A DNA stretch of 64,000 bases from the NCBI GenBank assembly GCA_964584265.1, contig CAZOZI010000004.1, positions 1,877-65,876 of the forward strand, given 5' to 3'. The first letter of the stretch is position 1, and every line of letters starts with the position of its first letter. This DNA comes from an uncultured Candidatus Saccharibacteria bacterium (GTDB lineage: Bacteria > Patescibacteriota > Saccharimonadia > Saccharimonadales > CAYVSP01). The notes under the pieces are model-generated. The model was given only the letters and a program-made list of their open reading frames with translations. It searched no databases and had not been told where the DNA came from. Of this stretch, positions 6,746 through 59,171 are shown in pieces. The position numbers and the translations under genes are program-made.

Positions 6746-7783
6746 ATGCCGGAGTTGCCAGAGGTTGAGACGGTTAGAAGTGGGCTTAACAGGTTATTGC
6801 CTGGAAAGCGTGTTAAGTATGTAACGCATAATTGGGCTAAATCTTTTCCAAATGCTGAAGAAGATGTAAAGTGGTTTCTAATTGGTGCCAGAATTAAAAA
6901 AGTGGCACGTCGCGCTAAGATCTTACTAATTGAACTTGATAGCAAATATAGCCTGGTGATTCATTTAAAAATGACCGGGCAACTCGTTTTTGTAAAAAAC
7001 AATCCTTCCAGCGTATCTTCAGGCGAGCAGAATTTCGGTGCGAAGGCGAGCAACGGACCGAGTCGTAAAAGGGTTACGGTGAAGGGAGTAACGCAGCCTT
7101 TAAGCCGAAAAGCTGCCGCAAGCCAGTCTGAACAAGCGACTTGGTCGGTTGAGCTGACTGGCGATGAAGATCGCTGGGGGGCAGGGCATCCAAACGATAG
7201 CTTAATAGGTAATCTACCAGATAAAAGCACCAGAGTTATACTCGATTTTGGCGACAGCAAGCTATTTTTTAACGATCAACGCAAATTTGGCTGGATGCGG
7301 CTCATGCCAACCGCCGAAGTGCTCAACATAGACTTTATGAAAAGACTCGGACCTGAGCCATTGAATGCAGATTTTACTCAGACCACTTTCCGCGAGCGAC
7401 TTAGTCGGCGAGCGAATACAAATATTAAGGCTGCGCTGCTGGATCAAAGCGTTATTGCCGGAATCGGCAACATTTATGCCGATGAATCACTGTGGGGTGC
7501 CAAAATTCATCCAGCCACACTGGTTAAAAACCTATCTTTTAATAAACTCAATCAACTATATGATTCCATGCGTAAAGTGCTGAAACTGGCGATTAAAAAG
7601 GGCGGCTCAACCGATCGAAATTATGTAGACGCTGAGGGCAAAAAGGGCAGTTATTTAAGCTTCGCTAAGGTATTTCGGCGCAATGGGCAGCCGTGCCCAC
7701 GCTGCGGTACAATAATTGAGAAGATACGAGTTGCAGGGCGAGGCACACACTTTTGTACAAAGTGCCAGAAGTTGACAAAATAG
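6746..7783 (+). CDS. mutM: formamidopyrimidine-DNA glycosylase
   Basis: MPELPEVETVRSGL N-terminus, H2TH region, C-terminal zinc finger CPRCG...FCTKCQ. Long internal extra segment (see findings). Confidence 0.9.
   Translation: MPELPEVETVRSGLNRLLPGKRVKYVTHNWAKSFPNAEEDVKWFLIGARIKKVARRAKILLIELDSKYSLVIHLKMTGQLVFVKNNPSSVSSGEQNFGAKASNGPSRKRVTVKGVTQPLSRKAAASQSEQATWSVELTGDEDRWGAGHPNDSLIGNLPDKSTRVILDFGDSKLFFNDQRKFGWMRLMPTAEVLNIDFMKRLGPEPLNADFTQTTFRERLSRRANTNIKAALLDQSVIAGIGNIYADESLWGAKIHPATLVKNLSFNKLNQLYDSMRKVLKLAIKKGGSTDRNYVDAEGKKGSYLSFAKVFRRNGQPCPRCGTIIEKIRVAGRGTHFCTKCQKLTK
7031..7175. repeat. diverged P1-like element inside mutM, in frame
   Basis: ATTTCGGTGCGAAGG..GGACCGAGTCGTAAAAGGGTTACGGTGAAGGGAG...GCGATGAAG shares the ATTTCG terminus and the GTGC-AAGG, GGA-CGAG, CGTA/TACG and GTGA-G-GAG blocks with the P1 consensus. 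Confidence 0.5.
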
Positions 7784-14726: not shown

Positions 14727-15146
14727 ATGAACGCAGAAACACAAACAAACCGTGCAGCTACATCCCCTACTGTTTTGAGTCATAGTGAAGCCGATAGAAT
14801 ACTTGGTGAAGTTGAAGATACTAATAAAGCGCTGAAAAACGCTAAGATGCAAGTCTTAGGAGAAACAGCTGCTACATCTGGCATTTTAAGCAAGGATGAA
14901 GCTGAGAGAATACTTGGCAAGGTTGAAGATACTAATAAAACGTTCAAAGATTCTAGAACTCAAATTTTAGAAGAAATTCCTAATCCAGATACAGCTGGCT
15001 TGCACAAGGTAGCAAAACCTGACCATCAAATTGCAGCTAATGCTCAACCAGCCGAATTAGCTAACCCAGATATGCTAGTAGTTGATCCAGTCGATACATA
15101 CATTCGTCACGGCAATGACCGCGAACCCGTAGGTGCAGTAAAATAA
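14727..15146 (+). CDS. hypothetical protein with internal tandem repeat
   Basis: Two ~38-aa repeats (SEADRILGEVEDTNKALKNAKMQVLGE / DEAERILGKVEDTNKTFKDSRTQILEE). TGCTATAAT -10 box 14714..14719 lies 7 nt before the ATG. Confidence 0.6.
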   Translation: MNAETQTNRAATSPTVLSHSEADRILGEVEDTNKALKNAKMQVLGETAATSGILSKDEAERILGKVEDTNKTFKDSRTQILEEIPNPDTAGLHKVAKPDHQIAANAQPAELANPDMLVVDPVDTYIRHGNDREPVGAVK

Positions 15147-15190: not shown

Positions 15191-15454
15191 ATGGTAACTT
15201 CGGATAAAAAAGTCAAAGCTGCTCCTAAAAAGGCAGCTAAAGTAGATACGGGCAGTACCAGTTTTCAAATTACTCATTTAACTGAGCACATAAAGGATTT
15301 AACTGGCCACCTTAAGGTGAATCCCAAGGATTTTGCAGCCCGACGAGGACTATTGCAGATGGTTGGACATCGCAAGCGTTTACTTAATTATTTAGCTAGC
15401 AAAGATAGCAAACAATACCTTACGCTCAAAGAAAAGCTAGGCATTCGCCGTTGA
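15191..15454 (+). CDS. rpsO: 30S ribosomal protein S15
   Basis: [39 protein letters not shown] is the S15 signature region. Followed by pnp, as in most bacteria. Confidence 0.93.
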
Positions 15455-15458
15455 CCCC

Positions 15459-15565
15459 CTAGTTTTGTACATTTCGTTGTTGGAACTTTCGCTCCGCGCT
15501 CACCGTACCAGTTGAGTACGGCTCGCTTGCGGTGCTCGTTCCGCCTAGAACTGTACTAAAACCAG
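15459..15565. repeat. P1 palindromic element, intergenic copy (rpsO-pnp)
   Basis: ~107-nt imperfect palindrome (CTAGTTTTGTACA...TGTACTAAAACCAG) with core GCTCAC-CGTAC-N7-GTACG-GCTCGCT. Begins 5 nt after the rpsO stop. Confidence 0.75.
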
Positions 15566-15665
15566 AGAGTCAATCTCTAAGTTAACAATTTATACGATTC
15601 GGGAGTAGGACATTAGTCCGCTGGGTATGCGGATTGAATCTTGCGCCCGAACAGAAAGGAATTTG

Positions 15666-17810: not shown

Positions 17811-17985
17811 TATCAAGAACAGCGTAATTGGGGCTGGTTTTCTGCTGCTTGCCTACGCAATCGGCTCTCGGGCGCTCGATACTGGCAGCTACTGGGAATA
17901 TCTTGGCTGTGTTGTTGCCTTAGCGTTTAGTATAAAGTTTATTGTTCACGCACTGCATGCGAATAAATATGGTAAAAAAGTCTAA
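17797..17985 (+). CDS. small two-helix membrane protein
   Basis: 62 aa with two hydrophobic helices. Strong AGAGGAG Shine-Dalgarno inside the pnp 3' end. Confidence 0.55.
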   Translation: MSKVNIKNSVIGAGFLLLAYAIGSRALDTGSYWEYLGCVVALAFSIKFIVHALHANKYGKKV

Positions 17986-18544
17986 ACAAGCTCAACTCGA
18001 CGACATCCGTCAAAAGATCCTTGACGATAAAGTCTGTTTAAACCTGGCGCAGCAGGCGACACAGCTTGTATTTGGTGAAGGCAGCCCAGATGCGGAGTTG
18101 GTTTTTATAGGTGAAGCGCCTGGTAAGAATGAGGATTTGCTGGGCCGCCCATTTGTTGGTGCCGCCGGCAAATTTTTAGATCAAATGTTGGAAATGATCG
18201 GTCTCAAACGCGAAAAAGTCTATATAACCAATATTGTTAAATACCGACCACCAAATAACCGTGATCCACTCCCTGACGAAAAAGAAACCTTTTTGCCTTA
18301 TTTAGAGGCCCAACTAGAAGCAATTCAGCCGAAAGTAACCATAACGCTTGGTCGCCACAGCCTTAATTGCTTCTTGCCGGATCTTTCCATAAGCCAGGTT
18401 CATGGCCAGCCAAAAAGATATAAAGGTCGGGTCTTTTTGCCGCTCTTCCATCCCGCCGCCGCTTTATATAACGGCTCAATGAAACAGACTCTCATTGATG
18501 ACTTTGCCAAGATCCCCATTATTTTAAATAAGCTTTCAGTATAA
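17969..18544 (+). CDS. uracil-DNA glycosylase, family 4
   Basis: [17 protein letters not shown] and FHPAAALY motifs. Start ambiguous: TTG 17942, ATG 17957 or ATG 17969. Confidence 0.85.
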
Positions 18545-24700: not shown

Positions 24701-24820
24701 TCAGAGTATGAACGTCTATTGACCAACAGGGGTAAGTAAGCTATACTTGTGCGGTCATTAGTACTTCAGGTTACTGCATCTTTTGAGCGAGTAGCCTTTA
24801 ACCAAGAGAAGGACACTATT

Positions 24821-25420
24821 ATGAGTGCACGAGCAACGCAGGCCGATGAAGAACAAGGCGCTGGCGAGGAGCGCAAAGAAGATGTACAACAAAGTACTTC
24901 GACTGCGCACCGGAGTCAGCAACAGGGGTCCCCAGAAAGCCAGCTTTCCGGGGTAAAGCGCCGTAATGCATCGGCAAGTACTGACGGAGTCAGCAGCTCT
25001 CCTGGTGAACAGGTCAGTACGGTGCGTGGGTCGGTGAATCAGTACGAAATTGCTGTGCTATATCATCCGGATTTAGAAATTGATTTGGATAAAGCCGAAA
25101 AACGGGTGACCAAGATTTTTACCGACAACGTTGGCAAGGTGGTCAAAACCGACAATTGGGGCAAGCGTAAATTGGCGTATCCCATCAAAAAGAGTGAGTC
25201 AGCCGTTTACGTATTTTACACAGTTGAAATACCGGCAGAAGGTGTGCGAAAAATTGAAAGCACGCTGAATATTACAGATGAGGTTATACGTTATCTAATT
25301 GTTCGTCCTGATCTTAAGGCTATCGCTAAAGCAGAAGCTGCCAAAACCGAAAAGGCAAAAAAGGCGGCTGAGCGTGGTGATGGCGAAGAAGACAATGAAA
25401 ATGAGCATACAGAGGAATAA
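24821..25420 (+). CDS. rpsF: 30S ribosomal protein S6 (with ~70-aa N-terminal extension, or a shorter protein from GTG 25034)
   Basis: The S6 core starts at NQYEIAVLYHPD. ATG 24821 has GAAGGA upstream and the frame is open throughout. The extension is built from repeat modules (see findings). Confidence 0.85.
   Translation: MSARATQADEEQGAGEERKEDVQQSTSTAHRSQQQGSPESQLSGVKRRNASASTDGVSSSPGEQVSTVRGSVNQYEIAVLYHPDLEIDLDKAEKRVTKIFTDNVGKVVKTDNWGKRKLAYPIKKSESAVYVFYTVEIPAEGVRKIESTLNITDEVIRYLIVRPDLKAIAKAEAAKTEKAKKAAERGDGEEDNENEHTEE
24845..24912. repeat. P1-like element core in the rpsF 5' region
   Basis: GATGAAGAACAAGG..GGAGCGCAAAGAAGATGTACAACAAAGTACTTCGACTGCGC has the same block order as the polA copy (GATG-AG, CAAGG, GGAGCG, GTAC-GTAC, GCGC). 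Confidence 0.55.
24930..24953. repeat. hairpin module GGGGT-[CCCCAGAAAGC..GCTTTCCGGGG]-TAAAG
   Basis: Shares flanks and architecture with 52418..52445 but has a different, still complementary stem sequence. Confidence 0.55.
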
Positions 25421-25599: not shown

Positions 25600-26088
25600 A
25601 TGGCACGATCATTTAACCAAGCAATTTTAATGGGTAATCTTACCCGAGATCCTGAACTCAGGACCACGCCTAATGGGCAATCTGTGTGTTCTTTTAGCCT
25701 AGCGCTAAATCGCAGCTACAAGAGCAAAGATGGTGACTGGCAAGAAGTGACCGACTATGTCGATATCGTCGCCTGGGGGCCATTAGGTGAGCGTGTAGCG
25801 CAATATCTAACCAAAGGACGCCCAGCGCTCGTGAATGGTCGATTACAGTCCCGTAGCTGGGAACAGGACGGCCAAAAGCGCAATAAGGTAGAAGTGGTTG
25901 CCAGTGATGTAACTTTTCTAGGGGGTCGGGGCGATGGTAATAGCAGTGGGGGAGGTGAATTCGACCAATCTAAGCCAGATTCGCCCAGTGCCGAAAAGCC
26001 AAAACCCAGCAAAAAAGCTAAAGCTGATGATGTTGTGATAGAAGACATCGGCGATGAACCAATTAATTTAGACGATATACCGTTTTAA
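25600..26088 (+). CDS. ssb: single-stranded DNA-binding protein
   Basis: OB-fold N-terminus (NQAILMGNLTRDPELRTTPNG), Gly-rich linker, acidic tip DDIPF. AAGGAGG Shine-Dalgarno. Confidence 0.93.
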   Translation: MARSFNQAILMGNLTRDPELRTTPNGQSVCSFSLALNRSYKSKDGDWQEVTDYVDIVAWGPLGERVAQYLTKGRPALVNGRLQSRSWEQDGQKRNKVEVVASDVTFLGGRGDGNSSGGGEFDQSKPDSPSAEKPKPSKKAKADDVVIEDIGDEPINLDDIPF

Positions 26089-26097
26089 GGAGATATA

Positions 26098-26301
26098 ATG
26101 GCAAAGATTTTTAAATATAGAACAGACGTCCCGTTTTTCGACTATAAGGATTTTAAAACCTTGCAGCGCTACGTTAATGGCTACGGGCAGATTGAAACCC
26201 GTAAGAAAACAGGTCTAACTGAAAGCCAGCAACGTCGTTTGAGCGTGGCTATCAAACGCGCGCGACACATTGCACTCTTACCTTTTGTGGCAAACGGCTA
26301 G
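26098..26301 (+). CDS. rpsR: 30S ribosomal protein S18
   Basis: DYKDFKTLQRYVNGYGQIETRKKTGL and RRLSVAIKRARHIALLPF. Canonical rpsF-ssb-rpsR order. Confidence 0.93.
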   Translation: MAKIFKYRTDVPFFDYKDFKTLQRYVNGYGQIETRKKTGLTESQQRRLSVAIKRARHIALLPFVANG

Positions 26302-26307
26302 TATTTT

Positions 26308-26426
26308 TAGCCTATATTTCGCGAATTGCGGCGTCAGAACCTCCGCGCTTCGCTCACTGTACTGCTTACGGTACAGCTCGCTCCAGTACTCAGTTCTTCC
26401 TTGCACTTCATCGAAATGATAGGCTA
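26308..26426. repeat. P1 palindromic element, intergenic copy (rpsR-efp)
   Basis: 119-nt imperfect palindrome with termini TAGCCTAT-ATTTCG...CGAAAT-G-ATAGGCTA and core GCTCAC-TGTAC-N8-GTACA-GCTCGCT. Begins 7 nt after the rpsR stop. Confidence 0.75.
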
Positions 26427-26441
26427 AATTAGGAGATAATT

Positions 26442-27008
26442 ATGGCACTAGGTGTTACGGATTTAAAAAAAGGGCAGGTTTTCCAGCTTGAAGGTGTGCC
26501 TTACAGAGTGGTGGAATATGCACAAAAAGTTATGGGCCGTGGCGGAAGCATAGTAAACGTCAAAATTAAGAGCTTGCTAGACGGGCGAGTACTGGAAAAG
26601 ACCTTTAAGGGTAGTGAAACAATTCAAGCAGCTGATATTACTGCTAAAACCGTACAATATCTCTACTCTGATGGCACTAACTTCCACTTTATGGATGATA
26701 AAACCTATGAGCAGTTTCAGCTCCCAGCTCAAGATATGACCGACAAAAAAGGTTTTATGAAAGAAGGCGACGGAGTCCAGGCACAACTGTTCAATGGCCA
26801 AGTTATAAGTGTTGAGCTACCCAAAAACGTATCGCTCAAAGTAACTTACACCGAAGATGTGGTTAAGGGTGATACTAGCTCAGCCATTACTAAAAGTGCC
26901 GAAGTCGAAACTGGCATAAGCGTAAAAGTACCTGCCTTTATCAAAACGGGTGATATTATAAGCATTGATACAACTAACGGGGTTTATCGAGAGCGTATTA
27001 AGAGATAA
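26442..27008 (+). CDS. efp: elongation factor P
   Basis: Three-domain EF-P, 188 aa. The loop tip reads VMGRGGS (Arg at the position of E. coli Lys34). Confidence 0.9.
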   Translation: MALGVTDLKKGQVFQLEGVPYRVVEYAQKVMGRGGSIVNVKIKSLLDGRVLEKTFKGSETIQAADITAKTVQYLYSDGTNFHFMDDKTYEQFQLPAQDMTDKKGFMKEGDGVQAQLFNGQVISVELPKNVSLKVTYTEDVVKGDTSSAITKSAEVETGISVKVPAFIKTGDIISIDTTNGVYRERIKR

Positions 27009-50503: not shown

Positions 50504-51418
50504 TTACTCAGACTTACGATGGAATTTTGTGTGCACCTCTTTAAGGTGGGGATCTGTGACATGGGTGTAGATTTGGGTGGTTGAAATGTTGCTGTGGCCT
50601 AAGAGTGCCTGAACGCTTCTTAGATCAGCTCCATTCATGAGCAAATCGGTAGCAAATGAATGGCGCAGCGTGTGCGGTGAAACATGCTTTGTTATACCTG
50701 CCATTAACGCGTAGCGGCTCACCATTCTTTGCACACTGCGAGCCGTTAACCGATGGTAATTGCCGCTTAAATCCACCTTTTTGCTACCACCAAAACGAAT
50801 AAATAGTGGTCGAGTAGTGTCACCACGCTCATCAAGATATTTTTGGATCCATTCCGCAGCTGCCGGACTGATAAAGATTGGTCGGTCCTTTTGGCCTTTG
50901 CCACGCACCATAAACTCACGCCTTTTCAAATTAATGTGGTCACGGTCCAAACCAACCAGTTCTGACACACGCAGCCCCGACGAGAAGAGCAACTCTAAAA
51001 TAGCGCGATCACGTAAGCCGGCAAGGCTAGAAGTGTCTATTTCACTGAAAAGTCGCTCAACTTCTTCGGTTGAAAGGAACGTTACTTGTTTACGACGGGT
51101 GCGGGCCAGCTCAATTTTGTCAGCACTCAACGCTGTGATGTCGCGTTTGGCGCAAAATTTTAAAAAACTTCTTAGTGCAATAAGATGATAGTTCTGCGTG
51201 GCAGCCTGCAGTTCATCACTAGTGTTGGTACCCAAGCGATTTAGCCACAGACGCCATTTCCGAACCAGTTCCGGAGTTATGTCTCTGACTTTTATATCTC
51301 CAGCAAAATCGATTAAACGTGTTAGATAGTGGTCATAGTTACGGATTGTCTTTTGCGACCGGTTTTGCTCAATTTCCAAGTATTCTAGAAAGTCAGTTTT
51401 AGCTTTTTCCAGGTGCAT
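50504..51418 (-). CDS. tyrosine recombinase, XerC/XerD-like
   Basis: C-terminal catalytic region HTLRHSFATDLLMNGADLRSVQALLGHSNISTTQIYTHV. Start set at MHLEKAK (51418), 6 nt after TACAAT 51425..51430; ORF-track start 51436 lies in that -10 box. Confidence 0.88.
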   Translation of the reverse strand: MHLEKAKTDFLEYLEIEQNRSQKTIRNYDHYLTRLIDFAGDIKVRDITPELVRKWRLWLNRLGTNTSDELQAATQNYHLIALRSFLKFCAKRDITALSADKIELARTRRKQVTFLSTEEVERLFSEIDTSSLAGLRDRAILELLFSSGLRVSELVGLDRDHINLKRREFMVRGKGQKDRPIFISPAAAEWIQKYLDERGDTTRPLFIRFGGSKKVDLSGNYHRLTARSVQRMVSRYALMAGITKHVSPHTLRHSFATDLLMNGADLRSVQALLGHSNISTTQIYTHVTDPHLKEVHTKFHRKSE

Positions 51419-51504
51419 ACCTACATTGTACGACACTACGGGGCAGGGCTAGTAACAGTGGTGCTTATCTGTTAAACTATTCATAAATAACATAAGGAAT
51501 AAGC

Positions 51505-55363: not shown

Positions 55364-55870
55364 CTATGCTTGAGCTGGGCCGGGATTAAGAGCAAGCAGC
55401 TGACCCAAAGCTTCACTGATTTCCCCAGAAGTTATATTCTCGCTTACTATAACTATTGGTACCCCATGTTCTTGGCATAAAGCTTCTATATAATCTGTTG
55501 GAGTGGGAAGAGAATATCCACCAAGATCGTATCCTCTCATTTGAGGCAACACAAATACGATGTCCGGCGCAGTATCGGAAACAATATCAGGCTCAGGTAC
55601 ATCAGCGCGGTTGCCTCTGTAGAAAACGTTATCAATGTTGTCAACTTGACGGGATATTACTACACCATCGTCCGCTACACCATGTTCTTTTAGATATGTA
55701 GATAAAGCAACAGATATTTGTTTAGCACCTTCATAGTGGCCGCCAGTTGACGTATCTGTGGCAGCATCCCATCTATAGGGGACTTGCCCGTATATAACCA
55801 CTCGTGGTACATGTCTCGTAACCTCGCCTGTAGATTTTTCAAGTTCGCGACCATGACCCGGTATATCCAT
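55364..55870 (-). CDS. hypothetical protein, array unit 5
   Basis: 168-aa ORF. Promoter TTGACT-17-TAAAAT ends 6 nt before the ATG. Confidence 0.6.
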   Translation of the reverse strand: MDIPGHGRELEKSTGEVTRHVPRVVIYGQVPYRWDAATDTSTGGHYEGAKQISVALSTYLKEHGVADDGVVISRQVDNIDNVFYRGNRADVPEPDIVSDTAPDIVFVLPQMRGYDLGGYSLPTPTDYIEALCQEHGVPIVIVSENITSGEISEALGQLLALNPGPAQA

Positions 55871-55876
55871 GTTGCT

Positions 55877-55905
55877 ATTTTAGCACAAAAGGTATAAAAA
55901 GTCAA
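55877..55905 (-). promoter_or_regulatory. promoter of array unit 5 (type 2 module)
   Basis: TTGACT-17-TAAAAT with TGC upstream of the -10. 6 nt to the ATG. Confidence 0.7.
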
Positions 55906-55929
55906 TATTCATGCTTCTTTAACATTGCC

Positions 55930-55963
55930 GGTGTGCCTGCCTGCCGTAGGTAGGGAACTATTT
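55930..55963. repeat. array junction motif (unit 4/5 junction)
   Basis: Plus-strand reading GGTGTGCCTGCCTGCCGTAGGTAGGGAACTATTT. Confidence 0.8.
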
Positions 55964-55999
55964 ATAACTAGCAAACAAAAACCCAGTAACCAATAGGCT

Positions 56000-56323
56000 C
56001 TATCGAATAGGGTGAAAAGTCCGTTTGTAAACTTTGGGTTCTCTGCCCGCCATTGCTCTTGCCGTGTTTCTAACTGCTCTGGTACCAGTGTCAAACGAAC
56101 CGTCGTCGTGCGTAAAAGTAACTCCTAAACGATCTTCAGGGCGTGTGGGTAGGGGCAGATCTCTGCCCATAGCAGCTCTTAATATTTGTCTGGCAGCTTG
56201 GCGGCCCATTTCTTGGCCCCCATTCTCATGCGTAGATATGAGACCTAACTTTTTTTCTGAATGTAAGGCATAAGCTTCTGCGGGTGGTTGGGTTGGGACT
56301 AATGCTTCTTGATGTTCTGCCAT
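56000..56323 (-). CDS. hypothetical protein, array unit 4
   Basis: 107 aa from MAEHQEA. AGGAAA Shine-Dalgarno. The ORF-track 5' extension overlaps promoter 56343..56371. Confidence 0.6.
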   Translation of the reverse strand: MAEHQEALVPTQPPAEAYALHSEKKLGLISTHENGGQEMGRQAARQILRAAMGRDLPLPTRPEDRLGVTFTHDDGSFDTGTRAVRNTARAMAGREPKVYKRTFHPIR

Positions 56324-56342
56324 GATAATTTCCTGAGTATTT

Positions 56343-56371
56343 ATTCTAGCATAAACATGATAGAAAGTCAA
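56343..56371 (-). promoter_or_regulatory. promoter of array unit 4 (type 2 module)
   Basis: TTGACT-17-TAGAAT. Here a 19-nt leader with AGGAAA precedes the ATG. Confidence 0.7.
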
Positions 56372-56372
56372 C

Positions 56373-56386
56373 TGGCGGACCTTAAC
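56373..56386 (-). repeat. tRNA-Asp 3'-end-like sequence, junction 3/4
   Basis: Minus strand GTTAAGGTCCGCCA followed by GTTGAC (-35). Compare tRNA-Asp GTCGGGCCCGCCA followed by GTTGAT. Confidence 0.55.
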
Positions 56387-56392
56387 AGAAGA

Positions 56393-56408
56393 GGTGTGGA
56401 ATTATTTT
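56393..56408. repeat. array junction motif, short form (unit 3/4 junction)
   Basis: GGTGTGGAATTATTTT is the same flanks with the central 19 nt (GCCTGCCTGCCGTAGGTAG) precisely absent. Confidence 0.7.
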
Positions 56409-56412
56409 AGGC

Positions 56413-57372
56413 TTATGCAGCCTGTTCCCATAAACGTTCAGCAACAATGACATCAATAGCTTGATCCCACATATCATATGCTAGTTGGCTACCAGGGCAT
56501 CCTATAGTTGGCTCGTCCACTTTAATATCACCTAATCGGGTTCCAACAGGATAAACAACTATATGGTCACCTTGCATGTCTCGTTCTAAGCCCTCCAGTC
56601 GATTTGCAACATGCACATCTGCCCTGAGCACAAAGTTAGTTGTAGGCTGGGACCATTCAACAGCTTCTTGACCTGAAAGGTTAGTTCCTAACTGGGTATA
56701 GCTCTCAATTATGTCAGACGGCATGAAGCTATTACGGTCTAAGACAAAATCGCTTCCTCGGAGCCCATCGCCAAGACAAAAAGTAAACGCTTTTGCATAC
56801 TGTTGGGGGTGATGCAGTGGTTCTTGAAGCAAGGTATGAGCACTGTTTCTTGCCAAAGTTTCAGTATCTACTGATGCACCATTGGCTCTCGCCATTGCTG
56901 GCATTCGTCTGAGAATATTAACAATTGTTGCAGGCGCAAATTGAGCACCTGGAAATACAATTTCTCTTAGTCTCTCGGTTCCAGTGCTTTGGGACACTAA
57001 TGGTTTGAGCGGTATATGGCCTAGGTTTTGTAGTGCCCCATGATAGGGACATCCAGTTTCTGGAGGAATTACTGCTTCAAATGCTTTTTGGGCTGTTGAA
57101 GAAAGTAGTCTTTCTAGAGGCACCCAATCTTTGTTCATAGGCTGGCTAAAACCCGTGAATGGTTCGCCATTTGGTTGGACAAGGCCATATGGCGGAGCAG
57201 TACTACGAAAATTGGCATAAACTTCACGCACATTGTCCACTAAGATATGGGCATCGGCGTAGAAGTGTGGCTTTGCTTCAGTAAGTGAAGCACTAGGGTC
57301 AAGGGAACTAGGTACACCTGCCTTCCTTTGGCGTAGCTGTTCTCCGTAATCTCGGCGGGCCTCACTAGACAT
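56413..57372 (-). CDS. hypothetical protein, array unit 3
   Basis: 319-aa ORF with no motif recognised. Promoter TTGCTT-17-TATTAT ends 7 nt before the ATG. Confidence 0.65.
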   Translation of the reverse strand: MSSEARRDYGEQLRQRKAGVPSSLDPSASLTEAKPHFYADAHILVDNVREVYANFRSTAPPYGLVQPNGEPFTGFSQPMNKDWVPLERLLSSTAQKAFEAVIPPETGCPYHGALQNLGHIPLKPLVSQSTGTERLREIVFPGAQFAPATIVNILRRMPAMARANGASVDTETLARNSAHTLLQEPLHHPQQYAKAFTFCLGDGLRGSDFVLDRNSFMPSDIIESYTQLGTNLSGQEAVEWSQPTTNFVLRADVHVANRLEGLERDMQGDHIVVYPVGTRLGDIKVDEPTIGCPGSQLAYDMWDQAIDVIVAERLWEQAA

Positions 57373-57379
57373 AAAACAA

Positions 57380-57408
57380 ATAATACCACAAAAGTAGTAT
57401 TAAAGCAA
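57380..57408 (-). promoter_or_regulatory. promoter of array unit 3 (type 1 module)
   Basis: TTGCTT-17-TATTAT, 7 nt to the ATG. About 90 percent identical by eye to the unit 1 promoter, including ATACTAC-N4-GTGGTAT. Confidence 0.7.
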
Positions 57409-57411
57409 CAC

Positions 57412-57426
57412 TGGCGGACCCTGACG
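57412..57426 (-). repeat. tRNA-Asp 3'-end-like sequence, junction 2/3
   Basis: Minus strand CGTCAGGGTCCGCCA. Matches 12 of 13 tRNA 3'-end positions with one 1-nt indel. Confidence 0.55.
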
Positions 57427-57431
57427 TTGCA

Positions 57432-57466
57432 GGTGTGCCTGCCTGCCGTAAGTAGGGAACTATTTT
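57432..57466. repeat. array junction motif (unit 2/3 junction)
   Basis: GGTGTGCCTGCCTGCCGTAAGTAGGGAACTATTTT. Confidence 0.8.
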
Positions 57467-57499
57467 GTGTTTTCAGAAGGTTTTGCTAAAAAAAAGCTA

Positions 57500-58120
57500 C
57501 TATACTTGAGCATCCAAGGCTTGGAGAGCATCCTCTACGGGTTTAAGCTGAATCCACCTATGCGCCCTATCTTCATTAGCTCCGTCTGCTATATAAGAGG
57601 GATCTGTAGAGTCAACAGATATAGAAAAATTGTATCGAAAGCCATCTTCTGGTAAATGTACGCCTTCGTCCCAATGATCCAAAGCCTCGACATTATTTGC
57701 TAGTACTGCGTTTATAAAACCACCAGAATAAAAACCGACACGTCTGGCTGGATAGTCTGGAAATTCGGGATCGAATGGATTAGGCGAATCAAATTTATTT
57801 AAAAGAGTTATAGTTAGGCTTGGTTTGTCGTCCCAAGCAGAGGATCCCCCCTCATTCAAAAAAGGCATAAGTTTAAGCCATACTCTAGTGGTACCCCTTG
57901 GCATATCTACATCATCCACTAAAGTTTTTGCCATTGGTTTACCACGGTCATCGTGCTGAGTATCGGCATCGGGGTGCTTGTTTAAAACATGAGTGGCTAG
58001 TCGAATGATAGAGTCGAACTGCTTTTTTTCTTCAGGATGCAAATTTTCTTTAGAAACAAGGGCATCATCGAGAACTTCGCCTGTTGGATCGTGGTTAGGG
58101 CCGGAGGCAGAGAGAGGCAT
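57500..58120 (-). CDS. hypothetical protein, array unit 2
   Basis: 206-aa acidic ORF. Promoter TTGACT-17-TACAAT ends 6 nt before the ATG. Confidence 0.65.
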   Translation of the reverse strand: MPLSASGPNHDPTGEVLDDALVSKENLHPEEKKQFDSIIRLATHVLNKHPDADTQHDDRGKPMAKTLVDDVDMPRGTTRVWLKLMPFLNEGGSSAWDDKPSLTITLLNKFDSPNPFDPEFPDYPARRVGFYSGGFINAVLANNVEALDHWDEGVHLPEDGFRYNFSISVDSTDPSYIADGANEDRAHRWIQLKPVEDALQALDAQV

Positions 58121-58126
58121 TAGTTT

Positions 58127-58155
58127 ATTGTAGCATAAACAGTATGAAAAGTCAA
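58127..58155 (-). promoter_or_regulatory. promoter of array unit 2 (type 2 module)
   Basis: TTGACT-17-TACAAT with TGC upstream of the -10. 6 nt to the ATG. Confidence 0.7.
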
Positions 58156-58156
58156 T

Positions 58157-58171
58157 TGGTGGGCCTTGACG
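58157..58171 (-). repeat. tRNA-Asp 3'-end-like sequence, junction 1/2
   Basis: Minus strand CGTCAAGGCCCACCA followed by ATTGAC (-35). Confidence 0.5.
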
Positions 58172-58176
58172 TTAGA

Positions 58177-58211
58177 GGTGTGCCTGCCTGCCGTAGGTAG
58201 GGAATTATTTT
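58177..58211. repeat. array junction motif (unit 1/2 junction)
   Basis: GGTGTGCCTGCCTGCCGTAGGTAGGGAATTATTTT. Its 3' part supplies the last codons and TAA stop of unit 1. Confidence 0.8.
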
Positions 58212-58636
58212 CTTAATTCAGGTACGACTAACGCACCGTTGTCCATAGGAATACTGTAACGATTAATCTGAGGAACGCTTAAGGATGCGGCCGTATGGAA
58301 TTCATCAGGATAAAGACGAACCCATGTAAAATCTCCTCGAGGTCTAAAAGCCCTTGCTGTAGCTACGCCGCCGACCTTAAATAGTATTCTTAACTTACCA
58401 AGCTCTAAAGATGAGCCAACGACACGAAACTCAGGGTCTGTTCTATATACTTCAGATGGTAACAAACCCCGCATGAAGCCGTTAAGTTCGTCTGCAGTAT
58501 ATAGGGGGGTTGCTGGATAACTGTGGACTTCATAACCAACCACGTCTCCATCTTCATGATGATCACGAACAGCAGCAACTACCAGTTCAGGGTTTGCTTG
58601 TAATGTGTCAACTACATCTCTTGGAAAATTAGCCAT
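58205..58636 (-). CDS. hypothetical protein, array unit 1
   Basis: 143-aa ORF. Promoter TTGATT-17-TATTAT starts 1 nt after the tRNA-Asp CCA end and ends 7 nt before the ATG. Confidence 0.65.
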   Translation of the reverse strand: MANFPRDVVDTLQANPELVVAAVRDHHEDGDVVGYEVHSYPATPLYTADELNGFMRGLLPSEVYRTDPEFRVVGSSLELGKLRILFKVGGVATARAFRPRGDFTWVRLYPDEFHTAASLSVPQINRYSIPMDNGALVVPELRK

Positions 58637-58643
58637 GATATAA

Positions 58644-58672
58644 ATAATACCACAAAAGTGGTATTAAATCAA
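58644..58672 (-). promoter_or_regulatory. promoter of array unit 1 (type 1 module)
   Basis: TTGATT-17-TATTAT, then 7 nt to the ATG. Contains palindrome ATACCAC-N4-GTGGTAT (58647..58664). Confidence 0.7.
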
Positions 58673-58673
58673 C

Positions 58674-58751
58674 TGGCGGGCCCGACCGGATTCGAACCGG
58701 CGATCTCCTCCGTGACAGGGAGGCGTGTTAGGCCAGCTACACCACGGGCCC
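58674..58751 (-). tRNA. tRNA-Asp (anticodon GUC)
   Basis: Hand fold: acceptor GGGCCCG/CGGGCCC, anticodon arm CCTCC-CTGTCAC-GGAGG, T arm GCCGG-TTCGAAT-CCGGT, discriminator G, encoded CCA. Confidence 0.9.
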
Positions 58752-59019
58752 GCGTCAGAACCGACGGTCAGTTTTCACAAAAGAAACAAGATTTCTTTTG
58801 TTTCATCCTCTAGTCGCTTCTTCCTTACAGTTTTCCAAACAGTCGAGCCGAATGAATCGACTCCTTGGTTTGGAAAACTGATTTAGACAAACGAGGATTA
58901 GCTTTTGGATCCAAACGCGAAGCTGTGACGCGCTGGAGGTAATCATAAAATGACAAAGCAAAGGATACCAGTTACAGGGGTAAAAAGCAAACCTATGAGT
59001 GATATAATACGCTCTGTTT

Positions 59020-59096
59020 GCCACCTTAGCTCAGTTGGCTAGAGCACCACTTTCGTAAAGTGGGGGTCCGGGGTTCGAATCCCCGAGGTGGCTCCA
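59020..59096 (+). tRNA. tRNA-Thr (anticodon CGU)
   Basis: Acceptor GCCACCT/AGGTGGC, D arm GCTC-AGTTGGCTA-GAGC, anticodon arm CCACT-TTCGTAA-AGTGG, T arm CGGGG-TTCGAAT-CCCCG, encoded CCA. Confidence 0.9.
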
Positions 59097-59171
59097 GCGG
59101 GTATCGTATAGTGGCTAATATGTGACCTTCCCAAGGTCGAGAGGAGAGTTCGATTCTCTCTACCCGCACCA
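59097..59171 (+). tRNA. tRNA-Gly (anticodon CCC)
   Basis: Starts directly after tRNA-Thr. Acceptor GCGGGTA/TACCCGC, anticodon loop TTCCCAA, T arm GAGAG-TTCGATT-CTCTC, encoded CCA. Confidence 0.88.

Follow-up and report, generated by a model that had tools for sequence, protein, structure and literature searches.

A family of palindromic repeats in Saccharimonadales, similar in behavior to Rickettsia palindromic elements, in operon spacers and in frame within housekeeping genes

Between the genes rpsR and efp of an uncultured saccharibacterium lies a 119-nt imperfect palindrome, and the question it raises is whether such a structure is a native part of the operon or one copy of something that has spread. 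The window, as the whole 64-kb stretch of DNA analyzed is called here, was placed in Saccharibacteria (among Saccharimonadales metagenome-assembled genomes) by the relatives of its EF-P protein, of which the best match is only 83% identical. The operon runs rpsF (24749/24821-25420), ssb (25600-26088), rpsR (26098-26301), and efp (26442-27008), and the rpsF-ssb-rpsR-efp order is conserved among related loci. The upstream neighbor of the palindrome, rpsR, is a plus-strand ORF for S18 with 78-99% identical homologs in 70+ loci, and the downstream neighbor, efp, is a plus-strand ORF with Pfam EFP domains on an identical protein. A sequence-only reading had taken the palindrome, under the name P1, for a repeated element inserted at this junction with further copies inside genes, a view borne out by the in-frame copies in polA, fpg, and rpsF described below.

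The palindrome spans about 26308-26426 (model match 26307-26426), has a simple single-hairpin form, and is referred to here as the reference copy. It reads TAGCCTATATTTCG...CGAAATGATAGGCTA, with CTCACTGTAC-TGCTTACG-GTACAGCTCGC at its center; the ends TAGCCTAT/ATAGGCTA and ATTTCG/CGAAAT are perfectly paired with one bulged G, and the hairpin tip is CTGTAC-TGCTTACG-GTACAG. Both the sequence and the pairing are as first described, and the coordinates agree as well: the copy starts 7 nt past the rpsR stop codon (TAG, 26299-26301), with the six nucleotides TATTTT between them, and ends 15 nt short of the efp ATG at 26442. It reaches just upstream of the efp Shine-Dalgarno sequence, AGGAG (26429-26433), which itself lies outside the hairpin, 2 nt beyond the last base. 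The proposed comparison of folding energy with shuffled controls gave -37.7 kcal/mol for plus-strand RNA against -26.2 ± 3.2 for 200 shuffles (z = -3.6) and -48.2 kcal/mol for minus-strand RNA against -31.1 ± 3.2 (z = -5.4), with 0/200 shuffles as good on either strand. The reference palindrome is not a chance feature.

Some features of the site resemble a transcription terminator, as a stop codon lies close upstream and a terminator scan scored a terminator-like mini-hairpin in the window at 26296-26312, formed by pairing between the end of rpsR (GGCTA) and the beginning of the element (TAGCC). The GGCTA at the end of rpsR is also the 3′ end of the reference element, which may be coincidence or a trace of insertion. 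A native intrinsic terminator of rpsR was nevertheless rejected, as neither strand has a U-tract behind the 119-nt hairpin (AAATTAGGAG on the plus strand and AAAAATAC on the minus strand); the 119-nt hairpin is also absent from the terminator-scan list for the window.

Comparison of the same junction among relatives bears directly on this point. Among 73 Saccharimonadales relatives with both genes, the rpsR-efp spacer is 30 nt or shorter (5-30 nt) in 19, which are counted as empty, and longer than 200 nt, frequently with an additional small ORF, in 49. The empty junctions include that of the close relative L003, where the spacer is six nucleotides (taa-AAATTC-atg), and the spacer is 5-12 nt in ten other relatives, compared with the 140 nt that separate rpsR from efp where the reference copy is present. 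Among the relatives examined, a family member occupies this junction only in L043, L070, and L079. On a rough tree these carriers are scattered, and the nearest relatives, L003 and L002, have no copy in the region compared. Because the junction is empty in many relatives and carriers are few and scattered, the reference copy is an insertion and not a conserved terminator. Empty sites are also known in polA and in a uracil-DNA glycosylase gene. The family as a whole, which occupies the spacers of tightly packed operons as well as variable loops of conserved proteins, is patchily distributed among relatives, and much of this pattern could result from losses instead of gains.

The remaining members of the family were recovered with a covariance model, R1, built from 22 copies that included the reference copy. 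In the 64-kb window, R1 found exactly five copies, two in spacers and three in ORFs. The reference copy scores 91.2 bits (E = 7e-24) on the minus strand; the strand listed is that of the covariance model, which is the purine-rich, better-folding strand, and the operon mRNA is its complement. The second spacer copy lies between rpsO and pnp (15453-15571, minus strand; 82.2 bits, and E = 3.7e-5 in a single-query nhmmer search), begins at the rpsO stop codon, and has the same orientation as the reference copy; the same rpsO-pnp site is occupied in L158/L094 and L151. The copies in ORFs all match the model on the plus strand and comprise a core within polA (1496-1613, 75.9 bits), a core within fpg/mutM (7013-7130, 67.7 bits, in the ORF 6746-7783), and a composite copy with a nested extra hairpin at rpsF (24831-25027; model match 24831-24946, 61.8 bits, E = 2e-15), the last recovered by R1 although it was outside the training set. 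The reference copy had been called the best preserved, and it does have the top score of the five, with the proviso that it was itself among the training sequences.

The five window copies are only 55-66% identical in pairwise comparisons and differ by indels, and for these reasons a generic repeat finder run on the whole window missed the family entirely. A single-sequence nhmmer search of the window yielded two weak paralogs only, and it took iterated profiles and R1 to give all five copies. A search for the terminal 14-mer with three mismatches allowed found no paralog in the window, because the family does not conserve its termini. The expectation of paralogs, including copies within genes, thus holds when they are recognized by core and structure, which reveal four in the window, and fails for the terminal sequence. 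A further 22 copies were found by R1 in 80 related loci. In an Rfam 15 scan of the window only tRNAs were called; the best match near the reference element was HCV_SLVII, at 18.6 bits against a gathering score of 63, and copies in nine other loci had no Rfam match.

With empty junctions among relatives and four paralogs in the window, what was found is the opposite of a hairpin that is conserved at this site in all relatives and confined to it. The idea that the palindrome is a native rpsR terminator, an ordinary spacer hairpin, or a product of chance can be given almost no credence: it is already contradicted by the empty sites, by its absence from the junction in most relatives, and by the paralogs, some of them within genes, in addition to the missing U-tract and the shuffled controls.

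Three genes of the window illustrate how the element is accommodated within proteins. In polA, the whole insertion (about 1498-1644, 49 codons) lies directly before palm motif C (LLQIHDS) and carries a second small hairpin at about 1617-1640. The Taq, Bst, and Klenow polymerases align on both sides of the 49-residue stretch, which has no counterpart in them, and 117 of 120 Saccharimonadales homologs have a short loop at this position. Shortened versions of the insert are found in P0001 and P0006, which are among the closest relatives of the window polA, and a full homologous insert occupies the same position in the distant homolog P0012 (contig L082; 64.7 bits with R1), the nearest relatives of which (83-87% identical) lack it. 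Between the window and L082, the insert is 69% identical as DNA, compared with 60-62% for the flanking gene, and 49% identical as protein, compared with 56-61%. The insert is therefore more conserved as DNA and less as protein than the gene around it, and so the constraint is not on the peptide.

In fpg, the extra segment relative to solved Fpg structures covers about 6986-7222; these structures align to residues 1-80 and 160-342 only, with roughly 70 further residues between the two that contain the copy. In rpsF, the element lies at the start of the gene. Relatives have a conserved leader, a GGAAGGAG Shine-Dalgarno sequence, a start codon, and NQYEI at once, whereas the window has the same leader and Shine-Dalgarno sequence followed by ATG at 24821, 213 stop-free nucleotides (71 codons) that contain the element, and then GTG-AAT-CAG-TAC-GAA. 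The ancestral start is the GTG at 25034, and the element lies in frame between it and ATG 24821, such that initiation at ATG 24821 would add 71 codons to the N-terminus of RpsF; L077 is arranged likewise. The leader itself (24763-24815) reads CTTCAGGTTACTGCA...GAGCGAGTAGCC...CCAA.GGAAGGAG before the start codon in all relatives inspected (L003, L004, L007, L008, L010, L015, and L063), and is probably the S6:S18 autoregulatory leader, though not called by Rfam at the gathering score.

Further host genes were found in other genomes; in the metagenome loci, gene context was taken from stop-to-stop frames and not from proper gene calls. A family-4 uracil-DNA glycosylase (UDG) carries the element in frame in L048, L037, and L073, and the window's own UDG gene (17942-18544) is without it. 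In the L037 UDG (about 2100-2670), ...QMTTDLDAA... is found twice within an insert of about 100 residues, which suggests that all or part of the element has been duplicated in tandem there. The isoleucyl-tRNA synthetase (IleRS) of L089 has two in-frame copies, located where solved IleRS structures skip residues 225-254 and 722-754, and additional copies occur in GlmS (L126) and Dus (L115), both within long ORFs with matching Pfam domains. Reading frames through the in-gene copies stay open, the inserts fall in loops whose length varies among homologs, and the encoded peptides are hydrophilic (Kyte-Doolittle values of -0.2 to -1.2).

Several simpler generalizations about the in-gene copies were considered and rejected. 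A preference for DNA-repair genes, suggested by polA, fpg, and UDG, does not hold given the copies in IleRS, GlmS, and Dus. A single common reading frame and orientation was rejected, since indels shift the frame within the element and both IleRS copies have the opposite orientation. Stop codons are also unsupported as the cause of the in-gene orientation, as the usual sense strand has more stops per frame (1.85 versus 0.9) than the other strand; the hydrophilicity of the peptides is more likely the filter.

The conservation of the structure in this family is unusually clear. The RNAalifold consensus is one long hairpin with compensatory changes in 17 of 21 pairs. In a model-based alignment of 27 copies, 91.3% of cells are paired, compared with 67% for shuffled and 26-38% for slid partners, and double-change cells number 144 against 43 in the control. 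The same analysis of 80 metagenome copies gave 93.9% paired against 72% shuffled and 375 double changes against 125, in an alignment that was fitted to the model and in which the central helix was fixed by the search pattern, with the outer helices independent of the pattern. The terminal stems have entirely different sequences between copies and are complementary within each copy, with termini such as TAGCCTAT..., TAGGACTTTC..., AATCCGTATCG..., and ATCAATAAAATT..., and the conserved features of the fold are an invariant CGTA/TACG tip and purine-rich internal loops.

Beside the simple form of about 117-125 nt, about half of the copies have a composite form of about 161-167 nt, in which an outer stem of 9-12 bp closes both the main hairpin and a second small one. 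The small hairpin has the form CCTGYY-stem-GCnnAGC-stem in the reference orientation and covaries too, as between the window and L082 polA copies. Stems are likewise maintained by compensatory changes in diverged copies, such as the sister copies of L012 and L022, although this would be expected of a functional RNA as well.

The family is abundant, and part of it appears to have been mobile recently. An exact core pattern, TCACCGTACN{4,9}GTACGGCTCRCT, which matches only 4 of the first 27 copies, matches at least 120 metagenome stretches, where about 3 would be expected by chance on a rough estimate. R1 found 80 matches, mostly full length, in 80 fetched metagenome loci and confirmed a copy in nearly all of them; compared with the window proteins, these contigs mostly cover regions of the genome other than the window's. 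Carriage by phages is unsupported, as the core pattern had 0 matches among IMG/VR viral contigs. Most copies are old and diverged. A young AT-rich subfamily (L142, L124, L099, and L146), with ends ATCAATAAAATTGCC... and ...GGTAATTTTATTGAT, is 86-92% identical and has flanks at background identity, and such near-identical copies in unrelated flanks point to recent spread.

The young subfamily is bordered by an A-run on its left side and by a T-run on its right, and these flanks contain no direct repeat. The target-site duplication that had been sought at the boundaries of the reference copy amounts to an ambiguous TA at both ends; the same TA bounds the L043 and L070 copies, and it is inseparable from the inverted repeat. 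Neither a target duplication nor a conserved terminal inverted repeat was found at the copies examined. The only near-identical pair of filled and empty loci is L009 (12588-12768, 181 nt with a copy of the element) and L008 (12588-12649, 62 unrelated nucleotides), with flanks 97-99.7% identical. The two differ by a segment replacement, and the stop codon of the upstream gene differs too; the pair was rejected as a clean example from which exact ends and a target duplication might be read. A Pfam scan of 10 minus-strand window ORFs found no transposase and no Y1-transposase domain, only a XerC/D-like recombinase and housekeeping genes. The former (50504-51436, minus strand) is a XerC/XerD-type tyrosine recombinase with Phage_integrase and SAM-like N-terminal domains and has no apparent link to the element. 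Insertion is well supported, and transposition itself is inferred, because no target duplication, conserved terminal repeat, or candidate transposase was found.

A further property of the family is its strand asymmetry. The model strand, which is the complement of the reference orientation, is about 10-12 kcal/mol more stable in nearly every copy, with 65 G:U against 32 A.C in its outer helices and internal loops that are 74% purine, including recurrent GA/AG opposite GA. The stability gap is about 12 kcal/mol in every context class and the same for both orientations of the model strand to local genes, and since it is independent of local orientation, the asymmetry looks like a property of the family and not an adaptation of single copies to their own mRNA. 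In spacers between co-directional genes (n = 33), the model strand is antisense in 26 and sense in 7; within ORFs the sense orientation is the more frequent one, with exceptions. This 26:7 bias is not predicted by a purely neutral element without an added selection filter. Two such filters may operate, one in proteins, where the purine-rich sense orientation would yield hydrophilic peptides, and one in spacers, where the weaker-folding orientation in mRNA would be better tolerated; a strand-specific insertion mechanism is a possible alternative to both.

The orientation bias, together with the strong covariation and the conserved purine-rich internal loops, could also be explained if the hairpins were host-selected cis-acting RNA elements of polycistronic mRNAs that serve in processing, stability, or decoupling, for example as targets of an RNase III-type enzyme, comparable to the leader hairpin of E. 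coli rpsO-pnp, with the in-gene copies as by-products. Spacers of the same highly expressed operons, namely rpsO-pnp, ssb-rpsR, rpsR-efp, and the region downstream of rnj, are repeatedly occupied in genomes that are distant from one another, as would be expected of such elements, and the idea is compatible with a mobile origin followed by domestication. In most intergenic copies, however, the better-folding strand with its G:U and G.A pairs is the non-mRNA strand, and the asymmetry is equal in all contexts. The element is also missing from the rpsR-efp junction of most relatives and present within the coding regions of unrelated enzymes, which together make selection for a cis-acting role an unlikely explanation.

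Of the 33 intergenic copies, 26 have the structural strand opposite to the flanking genes, and the intergenic copies might alternatively be small antisense RNA genes, in which the purine-rich, better-folding strand is transcribed against the operon and acts on the mRNA or binds a protein. A weak promoter-like site (26467-26439, minus strand, 9/12 matches) does lead into the reference copy, but it coincides in part with the efp start, and such sites occur at chance level (7 found versus 4.4 expected). The copies share no conserved promoter or terminator, several in-gene copies have this strand as the sense strand, and no Rfam family matches. An antisense function is accordingly very improbable.

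The reading that is probably correct is that the palindrome belongs to a non-autonomous family of hairpin-forming repeats in Saccharimonadales that resembles the Rickettsia palindromic elements (RPEs) in behavior and has spread by insertion. Under this reading, the elements would spread, or have spread, by insertion and would persist only where little harm is done, either in spacers directly behind a stop codon or in protein loops that tolerate them and in which they would be read as hydrophilic peptides. The strand asymmetry, being independent of context, suggests that a single-stranded form of one strand, as ssDNA or RNA, takes part in propagation, such that the hairpin would be needed there and not for local mRNA function.

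At the locus in question, insertion would have parted the formerly adjacent rpsR and efp and introduced an imperfect hairpin of about 50 bp into the polycistronic mRNA. With the hairpin in the spacer, 2 nt upstream of the efp Shine-Dalgarno sequence, efp would be initiated independently, its translation uncoupled from that of rpsR and its Shine-Dalgarno sequence left free beside the base of the stem. It is plausible by analogy that the hairpin is also a site for processing by a double-strand-specific RNase or for 3′-end stabilization, as RNase cleavage or upstream 3′-end protection has been proposed for Correia and ERIC hairpins (PMC2229807).

Among known systems, the RPEs are the closest in behavior. 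In two accounts (PMC10969869, PMC2229807), RPE-1 to RPE-10 (Ogata et al. 2000) are described as 105-150-nt imperfect palindromes with long predicted stem-loops, present as many diverged copies in a small reduced genome, either intergenic or in frame in housekeeping proteins without inactivation, and as having ambiguous target-site duplications, TA at the termini of some copies, and no known transposase. The present family is similar in size and hairpin (119 nt, with a consensus hairpin of at least 21 pairs), in its dispersed intergenic and intragenic copies (5 in 64 kb), in stop-free in-frame insertion (polA, fpg, IleRS twice, UDG, and the rpsF N-terminus), and in the ambiguous target duplication and the failure to find a mobilizing enzyme. 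The hosts differ, being Patescibacteria/CPR (Saccharimonadales) here and Alphaproteobacteria (Rickettsiales) for RPEs, and sequence homology is not expected; the family is likened to RPEs by behavior and, the host phylum being different, is not counted among them. Traits of the Saccharibacteria family include a composite two-hairpin form, the CGTA/TACG tip, purine-rich loops, and a strand asymmetry that is constant; none of its copies was seen in an RNA gene.

Classical miniature inverted-repeat elements (MITEs) such as Correia/NEMIS, ERIC/IRU, RUP, and YPAL are alike in their length of about 100-170 nt, their long hairpin transcripts, their occurrence in transcribed spacers, and the occasional in-frame ORF fusion (ERIC and the 107-bp Correia element), and Correia elements may affect mRNA processing by RNase III. 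Their terminal inverted repeats are conserved and correspond to those of a parent IS, and a target duplication of TA or more is usual, whereas the Saccharibacteria family has terminal stems that vary in sequence yet remain complementary, with no conserved terminal repeat, and neither a duplication nor a parent IS was found. It does have the marks of recent mobility associated with MITEs, namely near-identical copies at different loci and empty sites.

REP/BIME sequences with RAYT proteins (IS200/IS605-like Y1 transposases) and IS608-type ssDNA transposition offer another parallel, as these systems recognize structure instead of terminal sequence, act strand-specifically on single-stranded hairpins, and produce an orientation bias of insertions. 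REPs are, however, 20-40 nt long, carry GTAG/CGTC tags, and are extragenic, in contrast to the untagged 117-167-nt elements here, and no RAYT or TnpA was found among the 10 minus-strand window ORFs scanned with Pfam. The family is neither a REP nor a terminator nor an Rfam family, and is a new family of palindromic repeats that are RPE-like by behavior. In an incomplete collection of full texts, no description of palindromic elements, MITEs, or repetitive hairpins like these in Saccharibacteria/CPR was found, and the family is apparently undescribed in this phylum.

The repeated use of the same sites may have a further meaning. The same polA loop is filled in two lineages whose nearest relatives lack the insert in one case, and the rpsO-pnp, ssb-rpsR, and rpsR-efp junctions recur, which may point to target-directed integration and not mere tolerance, with the conserved fold (one or two stem-closed hairpins, the invariant tip, G.A-type internal loops, and the strand asymmetry) serving as the recognition form of an ssDNA or RNA intermediate for a so far undescribed CPR mobilization machinery. 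This proposal is speculative and, at present, distinctly unlikely to be correct; if true, it would describe a novel type of mobile element, guided by structure and routinely remodeling essential proteins.

In-frame protein-coding palindromes have hitherto been treated as a peculiarity of Rickettsia, and an independent, abundant family in Saccharibacteria behaves alike. A second lineage of small, host-dependent genomes with such elements suggests that the phenomenon recurs with compact genomes and spacers of a few bases. In practical terms, gene calls in CPR metagenome-assembled genomes become inflated or split where such elements lie, as with the apparent 71-codon extension of rpsF and the insertions of about 49 codons in polA and some 70 in fpg. 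Loops specific to a lineage arise in this way in polA, fpg, UDG, IleRS, and GlmS, and the elements also provide dense presence/absence markers for strain typing. A large, highly covarying family with a young subfamily is also good material for the study of how such elements move, RPEs included.

Other repeats were observed in the window. Related non-coding stretches lie 22 kb apart at 9541-9604/31722-31785, 10417-10482/31593-31658, and 9626-9655/31460-31489; one pair of them forms a 64-nt inverted repeat, 88% complementary, with no Rfam match. Between truB and rpsO, the ORF 14727-15146 (139 residues) contains a 111-nt tandem duplication, 74% identical, at 14773-14976. Three to four copies of a 31-88-nt direct repeat with the core GGTGTGCCTGCCTGCCGTAGGTAGGGAACTATTT occur at 55876-58673, in the spacers of a minus-strand ORF block (55364-58636) that has no Pfam match and adjoins a tRNA cluster (58677-59168); these repeats could represent a promoter or regulatory region that the ORFs have in common, or else a small island.
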